Source: Patescibacteria group bacterium (GTDB taxonomy: Bacteria > Patescibacteriota > Patescibacteriia > UBA2591 > JABMQE01). Taken from it: a DNA stretch of 64,000 nucleotides. The notes beneath the pieces are model-generated. The model searched no databases. It saw nothing but the letters and a program-made list of their open reading frames with translations, and was not told the origin of the DNA. The stretch covers positions 997-64,996 of the forward strand of contig JAHIMF010000005.1 of NCBI GenBank assembly GCA_018896645.1. Reading direction: 5' to 3'. Positions 128 through 51,300 of the stretch are shown in pieces. A program made the translations under genes and the position numbers. Position 1 is the stretch's first letter, and every line of letters begins with the position of its first letter.

Positions 128-2806
128 ATGAAGAAGAACATCGTTATAATCGGCTCTGGTTACGTTGGCACAGTCGTTGGCGCTTGTTTAGCTAAACTTG
201 ATCATTCGGTGACTTGTGTTGATAAAGACAGGAAAAAGATTACTAAACTTAAAAAAGGTTTTTCGCCTATTTATGAACCCGGTCTTGAAGAATTGCTTCG
301 GGCGAATTTGTATCAAGGCCGTTTGCATTTTACGACTTCTCTTCCCGATGCTCTAAAAAGCGCGGAAGTTATTTTTATTGCCGTTGGCACTCCATCTAAA
401 CCAGATGGGTCTTGTGAGATGAAATATGTTTGGCAAGTGGCGCATGAGATTGGTCGGCATCTTGATCACTATGCTGTCATTGTAGATAAAAGTACGGTGC
501 CAGTAGGAACAGCTGGGCGGGTTAGAAAAATTATAGAAAGTTATAAAAAAACCGAGTTTGATATAGTTTCTAATCCGGAATTCCAGCGCGAGGGTTCAAG
601 TATCAAGGATTTTTTAGGGCCGGACAGAATTGTGCTCGGAGCTGATTCTCCTAAAGCCAAAAGAATAATGCGCCAAGTTTATAAAAAAATAAAAGCTCCA
701 AAACTAATAATGGATATAGCTTCGGCCGAAATGGTTAAATACGCAGCCAATGCATTTTTAGCCACAAAAATTTCCTACATAAACGAGATTGCCAATATCT
801 GCGAACATGTGGACGCTGATGTTGATGTGGTGGCAGAGGGAGTAGGCATGGACAGGCGGATTGGCTATAGTTTTATGAAAGCCGGGCTTGGTTATGGCGG
901 TAGTTGTTTGACTGAAAATGAGATTATTATTATAAAAAAAGGAAATCAAATTAAATCGATCAAAATCAAAGATCTATTTAATCAAAAATATATAAAGTCA
1001 GATGTGTTGAGTTTTGACATTAATAAGAGAAAGGTTTTGTTCAGACCGATTATCAATATAACTAAAAGAAAATATAAGGGCGATATAGTGTTCATAAAAT
1101 CACGAATGAATAAGATGCTCTCTTGTACTGAAGATCATCCTTTCATTTCTTATGAAGATAGTAGGTTTAAATTGAAGTTGGCAAAAGATTTGTTGTTGAC
1201 TGATAGACTACCTTGTTTTACATCCATGCCTTATATTACAAAAGGGTCTGTAATTGATGTTATATCTATTTTGCCAAAGGATAAATTTGATTATAAAAAA
1301 GTAAGAGTTAGGCCAGTTGGTAAACAGTTTTTAGATGTAAAAGAAAGATTAAGTTCATTTAAAGCTTCCAGACTCAGGGACATCTTGCGCTCAAATTGTA
1401 TGAATCTCGAAGAATTTCTAAAGACTGAAATGAAAACAAAAGATAAAATTTCAAGAAAAGATCTGGTTCTTTTTACTTCAAGGGGCAAGACAACTTATTG
1501 CCCAGCGGTTATTAAAATTGATAATGACTTTTGTCGACTCTTGGGTTATTACATCAGTGAGGGGAATATTCATTATGAGAAAAATTTGAGAGGAACACGA
1601 GCGAGAATAAATATACATTTTAATTCAAATGAAAAAGAATACATTAATGATTTAACAAATATCTTTAATAAATATTCACTTAAATTTGGCTTGCGGGGTA
1701 GAAAAGACATCCCAACTAAATCTTTTTATTTTTCTTCAATTATTTGGGCTTATTTACTAAATAATCATTTAGGCTGTGGAAAGGATTCATATAGCGCGGA
1801 TGTACCTGATATGATTTTTTCCTTAGATAAAGATAAAAAGGCGGAGTTCCTCCGAGGATTATTTAGGGGCGATGGACATGTTGCTTTCCCAAAAGGCACT
1901 AATTCTGTTGTCTATGATTATGGATCAATAAGCTATAGTTTAACTCATAAGTGTATTTTGCTCTTTAATTCAATTGGCATTGTCCCGAGTTATAAGACTT
2001 CGATTTCGAAAAAATCAAGTGATTATGCTCATTTTTTTAGGGTTTCTACTAAAAAACAGATAGAAGCCCTGAGTAATTTTAAAGACAAAAAAACGCAAAG
2101 GAAGATTAATCAGGTATTAAGTAATTGCAAGGACATTAAATCAGTTGGATTTAAGCGAGTTAATTCTGATTTCTGTGCTGTTGAGATTAAAGAATTGAAG
2201 AAAGAATATAAAGAGGTTGATGTATATTCACTTGAGGTTAAAGATACTCAAACTTTTATAACCAGCCATGGTTTAATAGTCCATAATTGTTTCCCCAAAG
2301 ACGTTAAGGCCTTGCATAATATTGCGTTTCAAGATGGTTATGATTTTAAGTTGCTTAAGAGTGTGATTCGGGTTAATCAGCAACAGCGGGAATTGGTGGC
2401 TAATAAAGTAAAGCGAATGCTTGGTAGAAAACTAAAAGGCAAAACAGTGGCGGTTTTAGGGTTAGCGTTTAAAAATAACACCGATGATGTGCGCGAGTCA
2501 GCCGCTATTGATATTATTAAAATACTGCAAAAATCAAAAATAAAAATTCAAGCATATGACCCGATTGCCATAGAAAACGCTAAAAAAGTCTTGGACCGAA
2601 AAATTAAATATTTTACTAATCCCTACAAAGCAGTGACTGGTGCTGACGCGCTGTTAATAGCTACCGAATGGCCGGAATTTATAGATTTAAATTGGAAAAG
2701 GATTAAAAAATTGATGAAATGTCCGAAAATTGTAGATGGCAGGAATTTATTAGAGAGGGCAGAAACGGAGGGGCTGGGGTTTGAGTATTGTGGAGTAGGT
2801 AAATGA
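128..2806 (+). CDS. ugd: UDP-glucose/UDP-sugar 6-dehydrogenase interrupted by an in-frame intein; extein about 431 aa
   Basis: N-terminal Rossmann motif IIGSGYVGTVVGACLA. The catalytic motif GGSCFPKD is split as GYGGS / C...HN / CFPKD. The C-terminal dimerisation and UDP-binding region is intact (LGLAFKNNTDDVRES...EWPEF). Confidence 0.9.
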   Translation: MKKNIVIIGSGYVGTVVGACLAKLDHSVTCVDKDRKKITKLKKGFSPIYEPGLEELLRANLYQGRLHFTTSLPDALKSAEVIFIAVGTPSKPDGSCEMKYVWQVAHEIGRHLDHYAVIVDKSTVPVGTAGRVRKIIESYKKTEFDIVSNPEFQREGSSIKDFLGPDRIVLGADSPKAKRIMRQVYKKIKAPKLIMDIASAEMVKYAANAFLATKISYINEIANICEHVDADVDVVAEGVGMDRRIGYSFMKAGLGYGGSCLTENEIIIIKKGNQIKSIKIKDLFNQKYIKSDVLSFDINKRKVLFRPIINITKRKYKGDIVFIKSRMNKMLSCTEDHPFISYEDSRFKLKLAKDLLLTDRLPCFTSMPYITKGSVIDVISILPKDKFDYKKVRVRPVGKQFLDVKERLSSFKASRLRDILRSNCMNLEEFLKTEMKTKDKISRKDLVLFTSRGKTTYCPAVIKIDNDFCRLLGYYISEGNIHYEKNLRGTRARINIHFNSNEKEYINDLTNIFNKYSLKFGLRGRKDIPTKSFYFSSIIWAYLLNNHLGCGKDSYSADVPDMIFSLDKDKKAEFLRGLFRGDGHVAFPKGTNSVVYDYGSISYSLTHKCILLFNSIGIVPSYKTSISKKSSDYAHFFRVSTKKQIEALSNFKDKKTQRKINQVLSNCKDIKSVGFKRVNSDFCAVEIKELKKEYKEVDVYSLEVKDTQTFITSHGLIVHNCFPKDVKALHNIAFQDGYDFKLLKSVIRVNQQQRELVANKVKRMLGRKLKGKTVAVLGLAFKNNTDDVRESAAIDIIKILQKSKIKIQAYDPIAIENAKKVLDRKIKYFTNPYKAVTGADALLIATEWPEFIDLNWKRIKKLMKCPKIVDGRNLLERAETEGLGFEYCGVGK
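905..2287 (+). mobile_element. Intein of about 461 aa with a LAGLIDADG homing-endonuclease domain, inserted at the catalytic Cys of Ugd
   Basis: Starts with Cys (CLTENE) immediately after GGS and ends with HN followed by the +1 Cys of CFPKD. Two LAGLIDADG-like blocks are present (LLGYYISEGN and LRGLFRGDGHV). Removing it restores a normal-length Ugd. Confidence 0.8.
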
Positions 2807-5056: not shown

Positions 5057-5581
5057 ATGGCAGAAGATAAAAAAACAGAATTAAAAATTGAGAATAAGAA
5101 TCAGTCATTGGATAACTTAGAAGTTAATGAAAACAAGGAAGATGGGCTCATTGTCCCTGAAAAAAAAGAGGGCCAGGTTAAAATTGAAAAAGGCAAAAAG
5201 GGCAAGAGTAAAAAAAGGAAAGTTATCAAGATGATTAAAAGTGGTCATGTTTATGTCCAAGCAAGTTATAATAATACAATAATAACAATTGCCGATCAAA
5301 ATGGTAATGTGATTAGTTGGGCTAGCGCCGGGAAGTGCGGTTTTAAAGGTCCTAAAAAGGCAACTCCCTATGCGGCCGGGATAATAGTTAAAACAGCAGC
5401 CGAAAAAGCGATTAAAGAACGAGGTCTTAAAGAGGTCTATGTCTTTGTTAAGGGCGTTGGTGCCGGTCGGGAGGCGGCTGTTAGGGCTTTAAATGCGAAT
5501 GGGTTGGCGGTACTATCAATAAAAGATGTTACTCCAACACCTCATAATGGATGTCGGCCGCCGAAGGTTAGGAGGGTATAA
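5057..5581 (+). CDS. rpsK: 30S ribosomal protein S11 with an N-terminal K/E-rich extension of about 45 aa
   Basis: Core [46 protein letters not shown] matches S11; the extension precedes it. Confidence 0.93.
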
Positions 5582-5812: not shown

Positions 5813-6448
5813 ATGGCACGTAACCTAGATCCAAAATGTAAACAATGCAGACGAATTGGCGAAAAGCTCTTTTTAAAGGGCGAGCGTTGTAATTCGACAA
5901 AATGCGCATTAGTTAAGCGAAAGTATCCACCGGGTGTCCATGGCCCTAAACGAAGAATAAGAGTTTCGGAATATGGTTTGCAGCTGCGCGAGAAACAAAA
6001 AGCCAAAAAAATGTATAGATTAATGGAAACCCAATTTGCGAATTATGTGAAAAAAGCCATGAACCTAAGCGGCGACGCTGGCAATAATTTGTTGGGCCTG
6101 CTGGAACAAAGGCTGGATAGTGTTTTATATAGGACCGGCATAGTAAAATCCCGAGATGCAGCTCGACAGGCAATATCTCATGGTTTGATTAAGGTTAATG
6201 GCAAAAAGGTTGATATTCCATCTTATATTCTTAGGGTCGGTGAAGTGGTTACTGTTAAAGACTCCAGCATCCTTGTTAAACAGTTTAAGGAGGAGGGCGC
6301 TAAAACTAAGAAAGAGAACGAATCTTTACCAAACTGGATAAGTTTGGATCCAAAAATTTTAGAAATTAAAGTATTAACTGCGCCAGATGCGGCTGATTTG
6401 CCGCACAACCTGGATATTCGATTAATTATTGAGTATTACTCTAGATAA
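5813..6448 (+). CDS. rpsD: 30S ribosomal protein S4
   Basis: MARNLDPKCKQCRRIGEKLFLKGERCNSTKCA (zinc-ribbon N-terminus) and S4 domain LDSVLYRTGIVKSRDAARQAISHGLIKVNGKKVDIPSY. Confidence 0.95.
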   Translation: MARNLDPKCKQCRRIGEKLFLKGERCNSTKCALVKRKYPPGVHGPKRRIRVSEYGLQLREKQKAKKMYRLMETQFANYVKKAMNLSGDAGNNLLGLLEQRLDSVLYRTGIVKSRDAARQAISHGLIKVNGKKVDIPSYILRVGEVVTVKDSSILVKQFKEEGAKTKKENESLPNWISLDPKILEIKVLTAPDAADLPHNLDIRLIIEYYSR

Positions 6449-6600
6449 TTCTTTTCTGTTCGTCAATTTTTTGTGTGTATTTGTTTTCATTTTCCGCGTG
6501 TTATCGTCTTTATAATTATTTAAAAATTAAAACACACAAAGGTTTTACAAAAGCACATGAAAAATGAAATATTCACTTAATAAATTTTTAAAATAAAACT

Positions 6601-7509
6601 ATGCAAAAAATTCCTTTACCAAAAAATATTAATGTGGAAGAAGACAAGGAAAACAAAAATCACGCTATCGTGACAATTGGTCCTTGTTACCCTGGTTATG
6701 GAACCACTATTGGCAATGCCCTAAGAAGGGTTTTACTTTCTTCTTTACCGGGTGCGGCAGTTACCGCTTTCAAAGTTAAGGGTGCCCCGCACGAGTTCTC
6801 AACGATTCCTGGAGTAAAAGAAGATGTGGTGGACATAATGTTAAATTTAAAGCAACTTCATCTGCGAGTTTTCAATGAGGAGCCGGTAGAACTTAATTTA
6901 AACGTTAAGGGAGAGAAACCGGTAAAAGCCTGTGATATCAGTAAGAATTCTGATGTAGAGATAATTAATCAAAACTTGGTGATTTGTCATTTAACCGATA
7001 AAAATGTCAAATTAGAAATGAAGATTTGGGTTGAGCCGGGACGGGGGTACGTTCCTGTTGATGAGAAGAGAGACGTGAAGCCAGAAATAGGCGTTATTCA
7101 AATTGATGCTTTTTATAGTCCGATAGAAAAAGTCGGTTTTAGGAAAGAAAATGTCCGTGTGGGCGAAAGAACTAATTATGACAAGTTGATTTTAGACATT
7201 GAGACCGATGGTACGATTACTCCCGAAGGGGCGGTATTGGAGGCAGGGAAGATTTTAGTTGAGCAATTTAGTTTTGTAGCTAGCGATGGAAAAGTTGAAG
7301 AAAAAAAGGAAGACGAACAGGGGATCAGTGAAGAGGTCGATGTCCCCAAAGAGGAAAAAGTAGAGGATAGCGAAACAGCCGGAGAAGATGAGGAGGCGAA
7401 AGAGGAAAAACAAGAAGAAAACCAGGAAGAGAAACCTGCCTCGCCAAGTCAAGGCGAGCCAAAGAAGAAGCGGGGAAGACCGAAGAAAGTTGAAAAAGTT
7501 ATAAGTTAG
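6601..7509 (+). CDS. rpoA: DNA-directed RNA polymerase alpha subunit: intact NTD, C-terminal domain replaced by an acidic linker ending in an AT-hook-like KKKRGRPKK
   Basis: NTD motifs GPCYPGYGTTIGNALRRVLLSSLPGAAVT and DVEIINQNLVICHL. No alpha-CTD sequence; last about 70 aa are E/K/D-rich with RGRP. Confidence 0.9.
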   Translation: MQKIPLPKNINVEEDKENKNHAIVTIGPCYPGYGTTIGNALRRVLLSSLPGAAVTAFKVKGAPHEFSTIPGVKEDVVDIMLNLKQLHLRVFNEEPVELNLNVKGEKPVKACDISKNSDVEIINQNLVICHLTDKNVKLEMKIWVEPGRGYVPVDEKRDVKPEIGVIQIDAFYSPIEKVGFRKENVRVGERTNYDKLILDIETDGTITPEGAVLEAGKILVEQFSFVASDGKVEEKKEDEQGISEEVDVPKEEKVEDSETAGEDEEAKEEKQEENQEEKPASPSQGEPKKKRGRPKKVEKVIS

Positions 7510-7568
7510 ACTAGTTACCTGCCTGCCGTCAGGCAGGGATCGATTATTAGTTAATTGATTTATTTTTT

Positions 7569-7919
7569 ATGAGACACCAAAAGAAGGGACGGAAATTGGG
7601 GAGGAAGACTGGACCGAGGACAGCTTTGATGAAAAATCTAGCTGATAGTTTGATTTTGTATGAAAAAATTAAGACTACGGAAGCCAAAGCTAAAGAACTA
7701 CGCCCGTATGTGGAACGACTACTTACCAGTGCTAAAAAAAATACATTGGTAGCCCGGCGGACGCTTATCTCTAAATTAAAGACCGAGAACGCAGTGAAAA
7801 AAACTTTGGAGGTATACGGTCCGAAATATAAAGACAGAAAAGGCGGATATACGCGGATTGTAAAACTGGAACCACGAAAGGGTGATGGCGCGCAGATGGC
7901 ACAGATTGAATTTGTATGA
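7569..7919 (+). CDS. rplQ: 50S ribosomal protein L17
   Basis: MRHQKKGRKLGRKTGPRTALMKNLADSLILYEKIKTTEAKAKELRPYVERL. Confidence 0.95.
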   Translation: MRHQKKGRKLGRKTGPRTALMKNLADSLILYEKIKTTEAKAKELRPYVERLLTSAKKNTLVARRTLISKLKTENAVKKTLEVYGPKYKDRKGGYTRIVKLEPRKGDGAQMAQIEFV

Positions 7920-40212: not shown

Positions 40213-40786
40213 TGAAGCGTTACAATTAGTTCATAAGTACGTGAAGACCGATAACAGCGTTAAACACATGCTGGCGACCGAAGCTATTATGCGAGCATTG
40301 GCACGTCATTTTGGCGAAGACTCCAAGTCATCCGACGGGGTAAACGAAGAAAAATGGGGTTTAGCGGGTTTGGTGCATGATATTGATATGGAAGAGGTAG
40401 ATTATCGCAATGAGCCGACTAAGCATGGGCCAAGATCAATAGAAATTTTAAAAGAAAATGGACTGACAGATGAGGAAATCTTGAATGCCGTTTTAGCGCA
40501 TAATGAGGCTTTGGGCGGGGAGCGGGGGACTAAAATTGAAAAAGCCATCCACTCGGTTGACCCCTTGACAGGTTTGATTGTGGCTGCTACACTGGTTTTA
40601 CCCTCTCGTAAATTAGCTGATGTGACAGTTGAAAATATTTTAAATAGATTTAAAGAAAAACATTTTGCCCGTGGCGCTAATCGGGAGATTATTGCCAGAT
40701 GTGAGGAGTTGGGATTATCTTTGAAAGAATTCTGTAAGATTGGGTTGGAAGCCATGCAGGGGATATCAGATGAACTTGGGCTATAA
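40202..40786 (+). CDS. HD-domain phosphohydrolase (YqeK-like)
   Basis: H...HD metal-binding motif (MLATEAIMRAL...LAGLVHDID) and downstream His residues. Confidence 0.7.
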   Translation: MTRDEALQLVHKYVKTDNSVKHMLATEAIMRALARHFGEDSKSSDGVNEEKWGLAGLVHDIDMEEVDYRNEPTKHGPRSIEILKENGLTDEEILNAVLAHNEALGGERGTKIEKAIHSVDPLTGLIVAATLVLPSRKLADVTVENILNRFKEKHFARGANREIIARCEELGLSLKEFCKIGLEAMQGISDELGL

Positions 40787-43261: not shown

Positions 43262-43745
43262 AATTCACCTAATTTCTAATAAAATTCTTAATTCAAAAAT
43301 GTCAAACAAAGAGAAAAAAAAGTATGACCAGAAATAAAAAAATTATTTTAATCTTAATTTTGACAATAGTTTTATTTTGTTTGTCACTTTTCTATGTGAG
43401 AAATGAAGTATGTTGTATGTTTGCTGGCATGAGACATCGTGGATTCCCTTATCAAATAATATCAATATCTAAGGTAACTGAGGATTTTGAAGAAGCGAAA
43501 AAAGTTTACTCCCTTAATGATTTTGAGCTTTTGAGTCGAGGTTGGAAGTTAAAAATAGATTCCGGCTTTGATCCGCTTTTCTGGAGTATTTCTTTTAATT
43601 TTATATTTTATTTAGCCATAAGCAGTGGATTAATTTTTATAGTCGAACGCATAAAACAGAATGAGAAAAAAATCAAAAAATAATTTTGAATTAAGCATTT
43701 AGAATTTTATTAGAAATTAGAAATTAGGTGAATTAGGTGAATTTT
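43262..43745. mobile_element. MITE-like element with about 45-nt terminal inverted repeats, carrying a 119-aa membrane-protein ORF, inserted between the adaptor and ATPase genes
   Basis: Left end ttaattcacctaatttctaataaaattcttaattcaaaa; right end ttttgaattaagcatttagaattttattagaaattagaaattaggtgaattaggtgaat is its reverse complement. Same end motif as 8350-8520. Confidence 0.6.
43324..43683 (+). CDS. Small membrane protein (cargo of the MITE-like element)
   Basis: N-terminal TM (IILILILTIVLFCLSLFYV) and C-terminal TM (FNFIFYLAISSGLIFIV). Confidence 0.5.
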   Translation: MTRNKKIILILILTIVLFCLSLFYVRNEVCCMFAGMRHRGFPYQIISISKVTEDFEEAKKVYSLNDFELLSRGWKLKIDSGFDPLFWSISFNFIFYLAISSGLIFIVERIKQNEKKIKK

Positions 43746-49799: not shown

Positions 49800-49814
49800 G
49801 CAAGCAAATATCTC

Positions 49815-50780
49815 ATGCAGAAATCATCCAAACCAATCATAAAACATATACTGGATTTTTTAGAATTTTGTGAAGTTGAAAAAGGATTAACTCAAAAATC
49901 TATTGAAAATTATAAAAGATTTTTAGATAAATTTTTAAATTGGTTAAAAAATAAAAAATTACAAAACCTTAAACCTCACGAACTAACTGATAAACATATT
50001 TGGGATTATCGAGTTTATTTATCTAGATACATTGATCCTCGGACCAGCTCTTCCCTATCCCGGCGGACCCAGAACTATTACCTGGTAGTTCTAAGGGTTT
50101 TGTTGGCTTATTTTGCGGATAAAGACATTGAATCCCTGCCATCTGATAAGATTAAATTGCCAAAGCTACGAGACTCGGATAAGGCAATCAAATTTTTGAC
50201 AGTTGAACAAATAGAAAAGCTTCTCTCGGTTACGGACATCAAAACAAAAACCGGCCTGCGTGACCGGACAATCATGGAAGTTTTGTTCAGCACTGGTTTG
50301 CGAGTATCCGAGCTCACGAGCTTAAATCAAGATCAATTTAATCTTTCTTGGATAAAAAAGAATGCCAAATCTTATGAATTAAGCATCACTGGCAAGGGCG
50401 GCCGTACCCGTACGGTTTATTTTTCGCAACGGGCATTATATTGGCTAAATAAATATTTACAAAAGCGGATTGATAATGACAAAGCGCTTTTTATTCATTA
50501 TCATTCGCCTGATAAAGAAACCAAGTCTCATCGATTGACTCCCCGTTCAGTAGCGCGAATTGTGGCCAAATACACTAAAATGGCTGGCTTACCGATTAGC
50601 GCTACGCCCCATACTTTGCGCCATAGTTTTGCTACTGATTTATTAACTCGCGGAGCGGACATTAGAGCAGTCCAAGAGTTTTTAGGCCATAAAAATATTG
50701 TCACTACGCAGGTTTACACTCATGTAACTAACAAAAGATTACGGGATTTGTATGACAAGTTTCATAGCGGAAATAAATAA
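49815..50780 (+). CDS. Tyrosine site-specific recombinase (XerC/XerD-like)
   Basis: Catalytic R...HxxR...Y (ATPHTLRHSFATDLLTRGADIRAVQEFLGHKNIVTTQVYTHV). Confidence 0.88.
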   Translation: MQKSSKPIIKHILDFLEFCEVEKGLTQKSIENYKRFLDKFLNWLKNKKLQNLKPHELTDKHIWDYRVYLSRYIDPRTSSSLSRRTQNYYLVVLRVLLAYFADKDIESLPSDKIKLPKLRDSDKAIKFLTVEQIEKLLSVTDIKTKTGLRDRTIMEVLFSTGLRVSELTSLNQDQFNLSWIKKNAKSYELSITGKGGRTRTVYFSQRALYWLNKYLQKRIDNDKALFIHYHSPDKETKSHRLTPRSVARIVAKYTKMAGLPISATPHTLRHSFATDLLTRGADIRAVQEFLGHKNIVTTQVYTHVTNKRLRDLYDKFHSGNK

Positions 50781-50910
50781 AAATAATTCCAAAATCCAAA
50801 TTACAAATTATTCCAAATCAAATCCAAACAACAAACCCAAAAAATGAAATTTGACATTTGAGCTTTGAGCTTCATTTGGCATAATTTAAACTTTGAAATA
50901 ATTTGGATTT

Positions 50911-51300
50911 TTAATTAAAGTGCTCCCCCAACACCCCATCCTTCTTAAACTTCTCAATATTTTTGTTAACCTGCTTATAAAACGCCGGGTAGTGTTTGCG
51001 AATAATCAAATGGCCTTTGTAGCGCTGACGATATGGGAGTTTCTGATGATGGGCTATTTCGTGCGCTATCACCCGCAGAATTGAGTTATAGCTTTTTGGT
51101 TTGCGGTGTTTTGGAGTATAAATATCAACGGTAATGGTTTTATTTTTGAGATTAGTGTGCCCGAGGACGAGATTTTTAGCAGACTTGACTCCCCCATTCC
51201 GTCCTTGCATTGGGCGGAATTTTAAGTTTGGGTATTTTAAAATAATACACGCGCGGATGAAAAGGTGAGAGATGAGTTGTTCGTGTTTTGGGTTTAACAT
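50911..51300 (-). CDS. Small HExxH zinc-metallopeptidase-like protein (SprT/YgjP-DUF45-like)
   Basis: IAHEIAHHQKLPYRQRYKGH with downstream His. Confidence 0.45.
   Translation of the reverse strand: MLNPKHEQLISHLFIRACIILKYPNLKFRPMQGRNGGVKSAKNLVLGHTNLKNKTITVDIYTPKHRKPKSYNSILRVIAHEIAHHQKLPYRQRYKGHLIIRKHYPAFYKQVNKNIEKFKKDGVLGEHFN

Follow-up and report, generated by a model that had tools for sequence, protein, structure and literature searches.

The C-terminal domain found in RNA polymerase's alpha subunit (alpha-CTD) counts as a near-universal component of transcription initiation in bacteria, where it contacts UP elements, notably those of rRNA promoters, and provides a docking site for many activators. 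The rpoA gene of a Patescibacteria group bacterium, contained in a 64-kb stretch of DNA that we refer to as the window, raises the question of what an alpha subunit may carry in place of this domain. A preliminary description of the sequence had proposed that the encoded protein retains an intact N-terminal domain (NTD), lacks the alpha-CTD, and ends in an acidic low-complexity tail with a terminal AT-hook. We asked how far this proposal holds, how widely such a tail is shared, and what the tail is likely to do.

The stretch of DNA is AT-rich (about 36–37% GC), and the product of its rpoA gene is a 100% match to NCBI entries MBU4331533.1 and MBU4512921.1, both listed as DNA-directed RNA polymerase subunit alpha of "Patescibacteria group bacterium". 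Its closest named relative is a protein of Candidatus Falkowbacteria, with 73% identity across the NTD. As is characteristic of genes for RpoA, the gene lies within an rpsM-rpsK-rpsD-rpoA-rplQ operon, and the order S13-S11-S4-rpoA-L17-L13-S9 is common to the window and related genomes. In the same window, ribosomal protein S11 is extended by some 60 E/K-rich residues. The short spacer downstream of rpoA contains two hairpins with a fold energy of -21.4 kcal/mol (z = -4.1). The features at the locus are as follows.

5813–6448: rpsD, the upstream neighbour of rpoA
6601–7509, forward strand: rpoA coding sequence, 302 amino acids plus stop codon
6601–7284, forward strand: complete alpha NTD (dimerisation, beta/beta' assembly), residues 1–228
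7285–7458, forward strand: acidic disordered linker, residues 229–286
7459–7488, forward strand: AT-hook PKKKRGRPKK, residues 287–296
7489–7509, forward strand: C-terminal hexapeptide VEKVIS with the stop codon
7518–7560, forward strand: two neighbouring RNA hairpins followed by a U-rich run, within the rpoA-rplQ spacer
7569–7919, forward strand: rplQ (L17), directly downstream of rpoA

Several lines of evidence agree that the assembly half of the protein is intact. Both Pfam domains of the NTD were found above cut-off, PF01193 at residues 28–223 (85.1 bits) and PF01000 at residues 59–173 (108.8 bits), and the NCBIfam model for RpoA, TIGR02027, scored 265 bits (cut-off 227.8). In a comparison with alpha subunits in the PDB, the protein aligned with residues 9–240 of E. 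coli alpha (E = 1e-59). An AlphaFold2 model built on a 92-sequence alignment folds the NTD confidently, with pLDDT values of 92–98 up to about residue 228 and a final helix at residues 208–227. The intact NTD of the preliminary description is thus borne out and ends at about residue 228. The start that had been given for the tail, position 7255, corresponds to residue 219 and falls within this last helix; the disordered tail itself begins at about residue 229 (nucleotide 7285), and the feature stands with that boundary moved.

Beyond this point every search that could have recovered an alpha-CTD came back without one. The Pfam model for the domain, PF03118 (RNA_pol_A_CTD), gave no match at E ≤ 10 with either the full protein or the isolated tail. 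Matches to the NCBIfam rpoA equivalogs stopped at about position 232–250 of 298–344 model positions, and alignments to PDB alpha subunits stopped at about E. coli residue 240, leaving the CTD part unmatched. The AlphaFold2 model contains no helices past residue 241, and the tail has no helical domain. Nor did Pfam searches of RpoA return CarD_TRCF (PF02559), a delta-like HARE-HTH domain, or similarity to sigma region 1.1.

Because low-complexity masking had been raised as a concern, we built a custom alpha-CTD HMM from 51 distinct Saccharibacteria CTDs together with E. coli and B. subtilis CTDs, and ran it with filters off. As a control, the model recovered 79 of 79 Saccharibacteria RpoA proteins, each with at least 108 bits. 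Among the 983 stop-to-stop six-frame ORFs of the window, by comparison, its best score was 7.8 bits (E = 0.19), to an antisense fragment; the 120 closest homologues of the protein (described below) scored no more than 5.4 bits each, and in two related genomes the ±10 kb around rpoA gave no match. Searching the window by tblastn with E. coli and B. subtilis alpha-CTD queries yielded nothing but noise; the best match, at 40607–40726 (E = 0.04), lies inside an HD-domain protein. The other two reading frames over 7255–7630 contain many stop codons and rplQ starts only 59 nt after the rpoA stop, so that a frameshifted or adjacent CTD is not present either. The lack of the domain is therefore common to Pfam, NCBIfam, the PDB comparison and a custom HMM validated by its control. 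Two findings that would have undone the original proposal, a tail that aligns to the alpha-CTD once low-complexity masking is lifted and a CTD encoded by a separate ORF, were not encountered: with all filters removed there was no alignment, and neither the 64-kb window nor the ±10 kb around rpoA in the two relatives contains such an ORF. This RpoA has no folded alpha-CTD and retains its NTD.

That alpha subunits of this group can lack the CTD has been noted before, in a single sentence of Rangel-Chavez et al. 2021 stating that the loss "is also present in Parcubacteria", beside losses in Hodgkinia, Tremblaya and Euglena chloroplasts (PMC8321222). The source cited there for Parcubacteria, Nelson & Stegen 2015, is silent on RNA polymerase in the text consulted. 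In open-access papers and on bioRxiv we found no description of an AT-hook replacing the alpha-CTD in Patescibacteria, CPR or Parcubacteria. As far as we could find, then, the loss of the CTD is known, and what is new is a conserved replacement by an AT-hook or basic tip with an HMGA/CarD-like organisation.

The loss does not extend to all Patescibacteria. A scan of species-representative genomes found 79 RpoA genes in Saccharibacteria, whose products of 307–316 amino acids have a canonical CTD (...IEDLNLSARTTNALINN...LKGFGSKALDEV...). When we used the NTD alone to search 1.84 billion 50%-identity representatives, a CTD was detectable in 83 of the 150 best matches; the remainder were hook-tipped, Lys-tipped, tail-less or obviously corrupted sequences. 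Since the CTD is retained in Saccharibacteria and in these 83 proteins, its loss marks one sub-radiation of the Patescibacteria rather than the whole group.

The tail that follows the NTD has two distinct parts. Residues 233–302 consist of 36% D+E, 21% K+R and 10% hydrophobic residues, and the linker (residues 233–284) has a net charge of -16. Its pLDDT values are 45–62 and its sole predicted secondary structure is a four-residue turn. Beyond the linker the sign of the charge reverses, the tip GEPKKKRGRPKKVEKVIS having a net charge of +6. The tip has the marks of an AT-hook: an RGRP core (residues 291–294, nucleotides 7471–7482) flanked by basic residues on both sides, KKK-RGRP-KK (residues 288–296), within a segment predicted to be disordered (pLDDT 45–71 over residues 232–302, rising to 67–71 at the extreme C-terminal tip). 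No other RGRP occurs in any genuine ORF across the 64-kb window. To our knowledge, the RGRP core is an AT-selective minor-groove element in all characterised cases. The E/D/K-rich low-complexity tail with a terminal AT-hook was accordingly described correctly from the outset.

The Pfam AT_hook model (PF02178, 13 residues) gave the tip 11.8–13.8 bits, against a gathering threshold of 17.4. As a control we scored human HMGA1a, which reached 16.2 bits with its three hooks; a single HMGA1 hook went unreported. Because even the three-hook protein falls below the cut-off, the threshold is uninformative for single hooks, and we dropped it as a criterion for membership.

We took as homologues the 120 best database matches, all of them proteins of Falkow-, Uhr-, Komeili- or Parcubacteria or of unclassified Patescibacteria. 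These proteins are 234–321 amino acids long, all have the NTD domains, and none (0/120) matches PF03118 in Pfam, so that the comparison with relatives that had been suggested as a check finds the CTD missing in all of them. The short architecture recurs in more than 120 independent assemblies (NCBI, JGI, ENA and Logan). Exactly one RGRP is present in 51 of 119–120 homologues, and 47 match the wider pattern [KR]xRGRP[KR][KR], with an unvarying K at -1, RGRP core, K/R at +4 and K at +5. The hook starts 7–16 residues before the C-terminus (7–12 in 45 of the 47). This regularity is found in proteins whose NTDs are 50–75% identical across the hook-bearing set and whose tails are mutually unalignable, though the motif and the charge features recur.

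Two observations bear on whether the motif is maintained. In 1000 shuffles of the tails, RGRP was expected by chance in a mean of 0.014 of 116 tails (maximum 2), compared with the 47 of 116 in which it occurs; its frequency therefore goes beyond what composition would produce. In addition, four lineages encode RGRP with different codons (CGG-GGA-AGA-CCG, CGC-GGC-CGG-CCC, AGA-GGA-AGA-CCA and CGT-GGA-CGA-CCA), and such synonymous turnover points to selection acting on the peptide. Judged by these sequence comparisons, the hook is under purifying selection.

The hook is nevertheless one of several endings. By tail class, the 120 homologues comprise 51 with a hook, 9 with a degenerate hook (RGRK and similar), 41 with a Lys/Ala/Pro-rich basic tip and 19 without a basic tip, and on a neighbour-joining tree of the NTD these types are mixed among one another. 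Tail length varies from 11 to 80 residues, with some homologues ending right past the NTD. The last 12 residues are strongly basic in 97 of 119 tails. The linker has a net charge of -3 or lower in 76 of the 119 (median D+E of 35%) and is net basic in 16; its acidity persists in homologues without a basic tip, and acidic linker and basic tip occur together in 71 of 119. With Lys-rich tips in 41 of the 120 homologues and no basic tip in 19, the hook is not universal, and the role of the tip must be dispensable or replaceable. Across the closest homologues, loss of the CTD is a clade-wide lineage trait, joined in most of them by a basic-tipped tail.

Canonical RpoA, of the type found in E. coli and also in Saccharibacteria, has the same NTD and the same operon position, and shares a logic in which an assembly domain, a flexible tether and a C-terminal minor-groove element (putative here) are present twice per enzyme. 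Where the canonical protein has a folded CTD on a short tether, the protein described here has an acidic tether of about 55 residues and a 10-residue linear motif as its putative DNA reader.

A closer parallel for the tail itself is CarD of Myxococcus xanthus, in which an acidic region of about 50 residues separates an RNAP-binding domain from RGRP AT-hooks, the segment being intrinsically disordered (PMC8156234). The CarD hooks contact AT tracts of a target promoter, at -63 and -77, and the protein still works when they are swapped for a histone H1-like Lys-rich sequence (PMC8156234). The order of parts (RNAP module, acidic region of about 50 residues, C-terminal RGRP) is the same as in the RpoA tail, and the interchangeability of hooks and Lys-rich sequence mirrors the alternation among RpoA tails. 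The differences are that CarD is an accessory factor which binds beta via CarD_TRCF, whereas the RpoA hook is fused to a core subunit, and that CarD has four hooks, whereas each of the 51 hook-bearing homologues has exactly one RGRP. HMGA-like domains of the CarD type have three or four hook repeats and an N-terminal CarD_TRCF domain, neither of which is present in RpoA, whose N-terminal module is the alpha NTD. The two are not homologous, and their likeness is convergent.

The hook core and its flanks are near-identical to the third hook of HMGA1a, PRGRPKK RKPRGRPKKLEK, and HMGA1, like the RpoA tail, combines an acidic stretch with a disordered context in the same polypeptide. HMGA1 differs in having three hooks with the acidic tail after them, where RpoA has one hook after the acidic region, and in not being part of a polymerase. 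In the delta subunit (RpoE) of Firmicutes, the C-terminal region is long, acidic and disordered, includes a Lys tract, and presumably competes with nucleic acids. It resembles the RpoA tail as an acidic disordered C-terminal region on an RNAP-bound protein, but it is another protein with another N-terminal fold and no AT-hook. Finally, the alpha subunits of Hodgkinia, Tremblaya and the Euglena chloroplast have, as here, lost the CTD and kept the NTD in reduced genomes (PMC8321222). Those cases are described as plain erosion, with no replacement DNA-binding motif reported, whereas the present lineage has an AT-hook or basic tip kept in place by selection.

We considered how such an enzyme might work. 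In E. coli, an alpha subunit truncated near residue 235 still allows RNAP to assemble and keeps basal transcription, while UP-element and activator contacts are provided by the alpha-CTD (PMC8321222). An enzyme with a CTD-less alpha is therefore expected to be active apart from CTD-dependent functions, and the present protein, of the Falkowbacteria/Parcubacteria type, would be the sole and functional alpha of its lineage. In place of the CTD it has a predicted disordered tail of about 75 residues, made up of an acidic tether of about 55 residues and a single canonical AT-hook. With alpha present twice in the core enzyme, every polymerase would have two hooks on long flexible leashes. In the mechanism we propose, sigma would dock the enzyme first, and the hooks could then enter the minor groove where it is narrow, at A/T tracts upstream of the -35 element, adding binding energy much as the alpha-CTD does at UP elements or the AT-hooks of CarD at -63/-77. 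The acidic tether may prevent the tip from settling on non-specific DNA, or hide it until it comes into play. A lone AT-hook binds DNA weakly by itself. We put the chances at about even that the paired alpha tips, each on its tether, grip the minor groove of A/T tracts upstream of promoters, with the leash limiting non-specific binding. DNA binding, a preference for AT, placement upstream of promoters and stimulation of transcription are properties that the tail would have under this mechanism, and the "radically simplified UP-element reader" of the preliminary description is a plausible reading of its role.

Two indirect tests, both weak, bear on this. Upstream of 29 predicted -35 boxes we detected no enrichment of A/T (0.59–0.73 per bin against an intergenic background of 0.69), in a comparison that relies on predicted promoters in an AT-rich background. 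Using NTD amino-acid composition as a proxy for genome GC, we found hooks to be rarer in GC-rich-proxy lineages (6 of 35 versus 45 of 85; Fisher p = 4e-4), a difference that is driven mostly by one GC-rich clade and is calculated with kinship ignored. The depletion gives weak support to AT-reading.

These results have to be set against other accounts of the tail. The basic tip might act as a non-specific electrostatic tether that raises the general affinity of RNAP for DNA, helping the enzyme to search for promoters or to stay with the nucleoid of a very small cell, with no defined element upstream of promoters and no UP-like reading. The repeated swapping of hooks and Lys-rich tips over the NTD tree, the sufficiency of a generic basic disordered domain in CarD (PMC8156234) and the lack of a positional AT signal upstream of predicted promoters all fit such a tether. 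The invariance of K-RGRP-[KR]-K in 47 homologues despite synonymous codon turnover, on the other hand, exceeds the constraint expected of a generic basic patch, and both the AT-selectivity of RGRP in every characterised case we know of and the scarcity of hooks in GC-rich-proxy lineages argue for something more specific; we regard the tether as an unlikely explanation, if a credible one. It is alternatively conceivable that the acidic linker is the main element, a DNA/RNA mimic like the C-terminal region of Firmicutes delta or region 1.1 of sigma70 that expels non-specific nucleic acid and sharpens promoter selectivity, with the basic tip mainly folding back as an intramolecular regulator. Acidity is indeed the most widespread property of the tails, tip-less ones included, and delta is known to pair an acidic tract with a Lys tract. 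Yet 16 of 119 linkers are net basic, some tails are just 11–19 residues long, HARE-HTH or sigma region 1.1 similarity was not detected, and a conserved minor-groove motif at the extreme C-terminus would be left unexplained, all of which makes a mimic improbable as the main function.

Three further accounts fare worse. AT-hooks can also bind RNA, and extended AT-hooks have been reported as RNA binders; a tail of this length could reach many sites on RNAP, and the hook might engage RNA, whether nascent or structured, or a protein such as a host or nucleoid factor, instead of DNA. Nothing in our analysis points that way, and CarD, the nearest bacterial RNAP-bound precedent, binds promoter-upstream DNA (PMC8156234), so we consider this very unlikely. 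Could the tail instead be a functionless remnant, a low-complexity sequence drifting in a reduced genome after the CTD was lost? Such drift would agree with the similar extension of S11 in the same window, the high variability of the linkers (11–80 residues), the homologues that stop after the NTD, and the losses without replacement in Hodgkinia and Tremblaya (PMC8321222). It is incompatible with a seven-residue motif that is invariant, and set at a fixed distance from the C-terminal end, in 47 diverged sequences (against 0.014 by chance), with the synonymous changes at that motif, and with the hook being the only RGRP in a real ORF of the window; recent horizontal spread of one allele is countered by NTD identities as low as 50–75%. 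A neutral origin of the whole tail is accordingly highly improbable. Least of all do we credit a CTD encoded separately elsewhere in the genome, or a short gene produced by an assembly or frameshift artefact, which we judge extremely improbable. The DNA inspected comprises 64 kb of this genome and, in two relatives, the ±10 kb surrounding rpoA; in those sequences no frame of the window or of the relatives' loci contains a CTD, the alternative frames are filled with stops and rplQ follows 59 nt on, the same short architecture recurs in more than 120 independent assemblies, and we know of no way in which an untethered CTD could act on RNAP.

Returning to the tail as a pair of minor-groove grips, its broader form is that, in a large branch of the Patescibacteria, an HMGA-like disordered module, composed of an acidic leash with an AT-hook or, in sister lineages, an H1-like Lys-rich tip, replaced the CTD as a UP-element reader by convergence, giving the enzyme a built-in DNA grip of eukaryotic style, and that class I activation was abolished throughout the clade. 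For this combined statement our confidence falls somewhat short of even. One part of it follows more directly: as the folded helix-hairpin-helix CTD is absent, there is no surface for activator contacts, and class I-type contacts that need the alpha-CTD surface cannot take place in this lineage. CRP/FNR-type activators are reported to be missing from CPR (PMC12531629), which fits a lineage without this docking surface.

The affected clade is a major, environmentally abundant bacterial radiation. If the proposed replacement is correct, its regulatory repertoire must function without alpha-CTD contacts, HMGA-like modules would have arisen on RNA polymerase independently of CarD, and the tail would show how little upstream promoter contact needs.

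The spacers on either side of rpoA each hold a candidate regulatory feature.

Window 7518..7560, + strand: two neighbouring stable RNA hairpins, then a U-rich run (-21.4 kcal/mol, z=-4.1).
Window 6449..6600: rpsD-rpoA gap, 152 nt, unusually long.

The hairpin pair and U-rich run fill the 59-nt spacer between rpoA and rplQ and were not called as a terminator by a simple terminator scan; within the operon they might act in attenuation, termination or mRNA processing. On the upstream side, the gap between rpsD and rpoA is 21-116 nt in relatives, versus 152 nt in the window, and it contains a promoter-like site (TTTACA-18-AATATT with a TG upstream, 6544-6573). The length of this gap, together with the predicted site, suggests that rpoA may have its own promoter. 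Elsewhere in the window, short direct-repeat motifs occur in the intergenic regions upstream of 8512, 43324, 18229 and 25080. Specifically, TTCACCTAATTTCTAA is present upstream of rpsI and likewise upstream of the gene at 43324, and tandem repeats resembling TTACTATTTA and CCATTGCTCAATTGCT are found elsewhere. All of these motifs may serve as regulatory sites, or they may represent small repeat elements.

Two further genes stand out in the window.

Window 49815..50780: Xer-like tyrosine recombinase (Phage_integrase, E=7e-39).
Window 128..2806, + strand: UDP-glucose/GDP-mannose dehydrogenase of 892 aa, interrupted by an intein (domain matches Intein_splicing and LAGLIDADG_3).

The recombinase gene directly adjoins the point, near 50-51 kb, at which cumulative GC skew reaches its maximum (region about 49800..51300) and gene orientation switches from + to -. 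The replication terminus or dif region may lie within the window. The dehydrogenase intein (Intein_splicing match, aa 274-720) carries a LAGLIDADG homing endonuclease (LAGLIDADG_3, aa 570-645).

Among the 150 best matches to the RpoA NTD in 50%-identity representative proteins, three were long and carried an alpha-CTD.

P0121: 569 aa.
P0122: 526 aa.
P0150: 664 aa.

In these proteins the NTD match begins only at residue 213-350. The upstream S4 gene may be fused to rpoA in these cases, or gene calling may have read through in lineages that use an altered genetic code. In the CTD-bearing Saccharibacteria loci (L002-L080), the inter-domain linker is short and acidic (e.g. ...AAKEDEESELAMPIEEL...), whereas the tether of the CTD-less clade is likewise acidic but long. 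This long tether may be an outgrowth of the ancestral inter-domain linker.

RpoA is not the only protein encoded in the window with a charged region of this kind.

Window 5057..5581, + strand: ribosomal protein S11 with an E/K-rich N-terminal extension; the Pfam S11 domain begins only at aa 63.

The extension comprises ~60 residues ahead of the S11 domain (aa 63-173), and S11 ranges from 124 to 185 aa across related genomes. Considering this extension together with the variation in S11 length, charged low-complexity extensions seem to be common in the lineage of the source bacterium.
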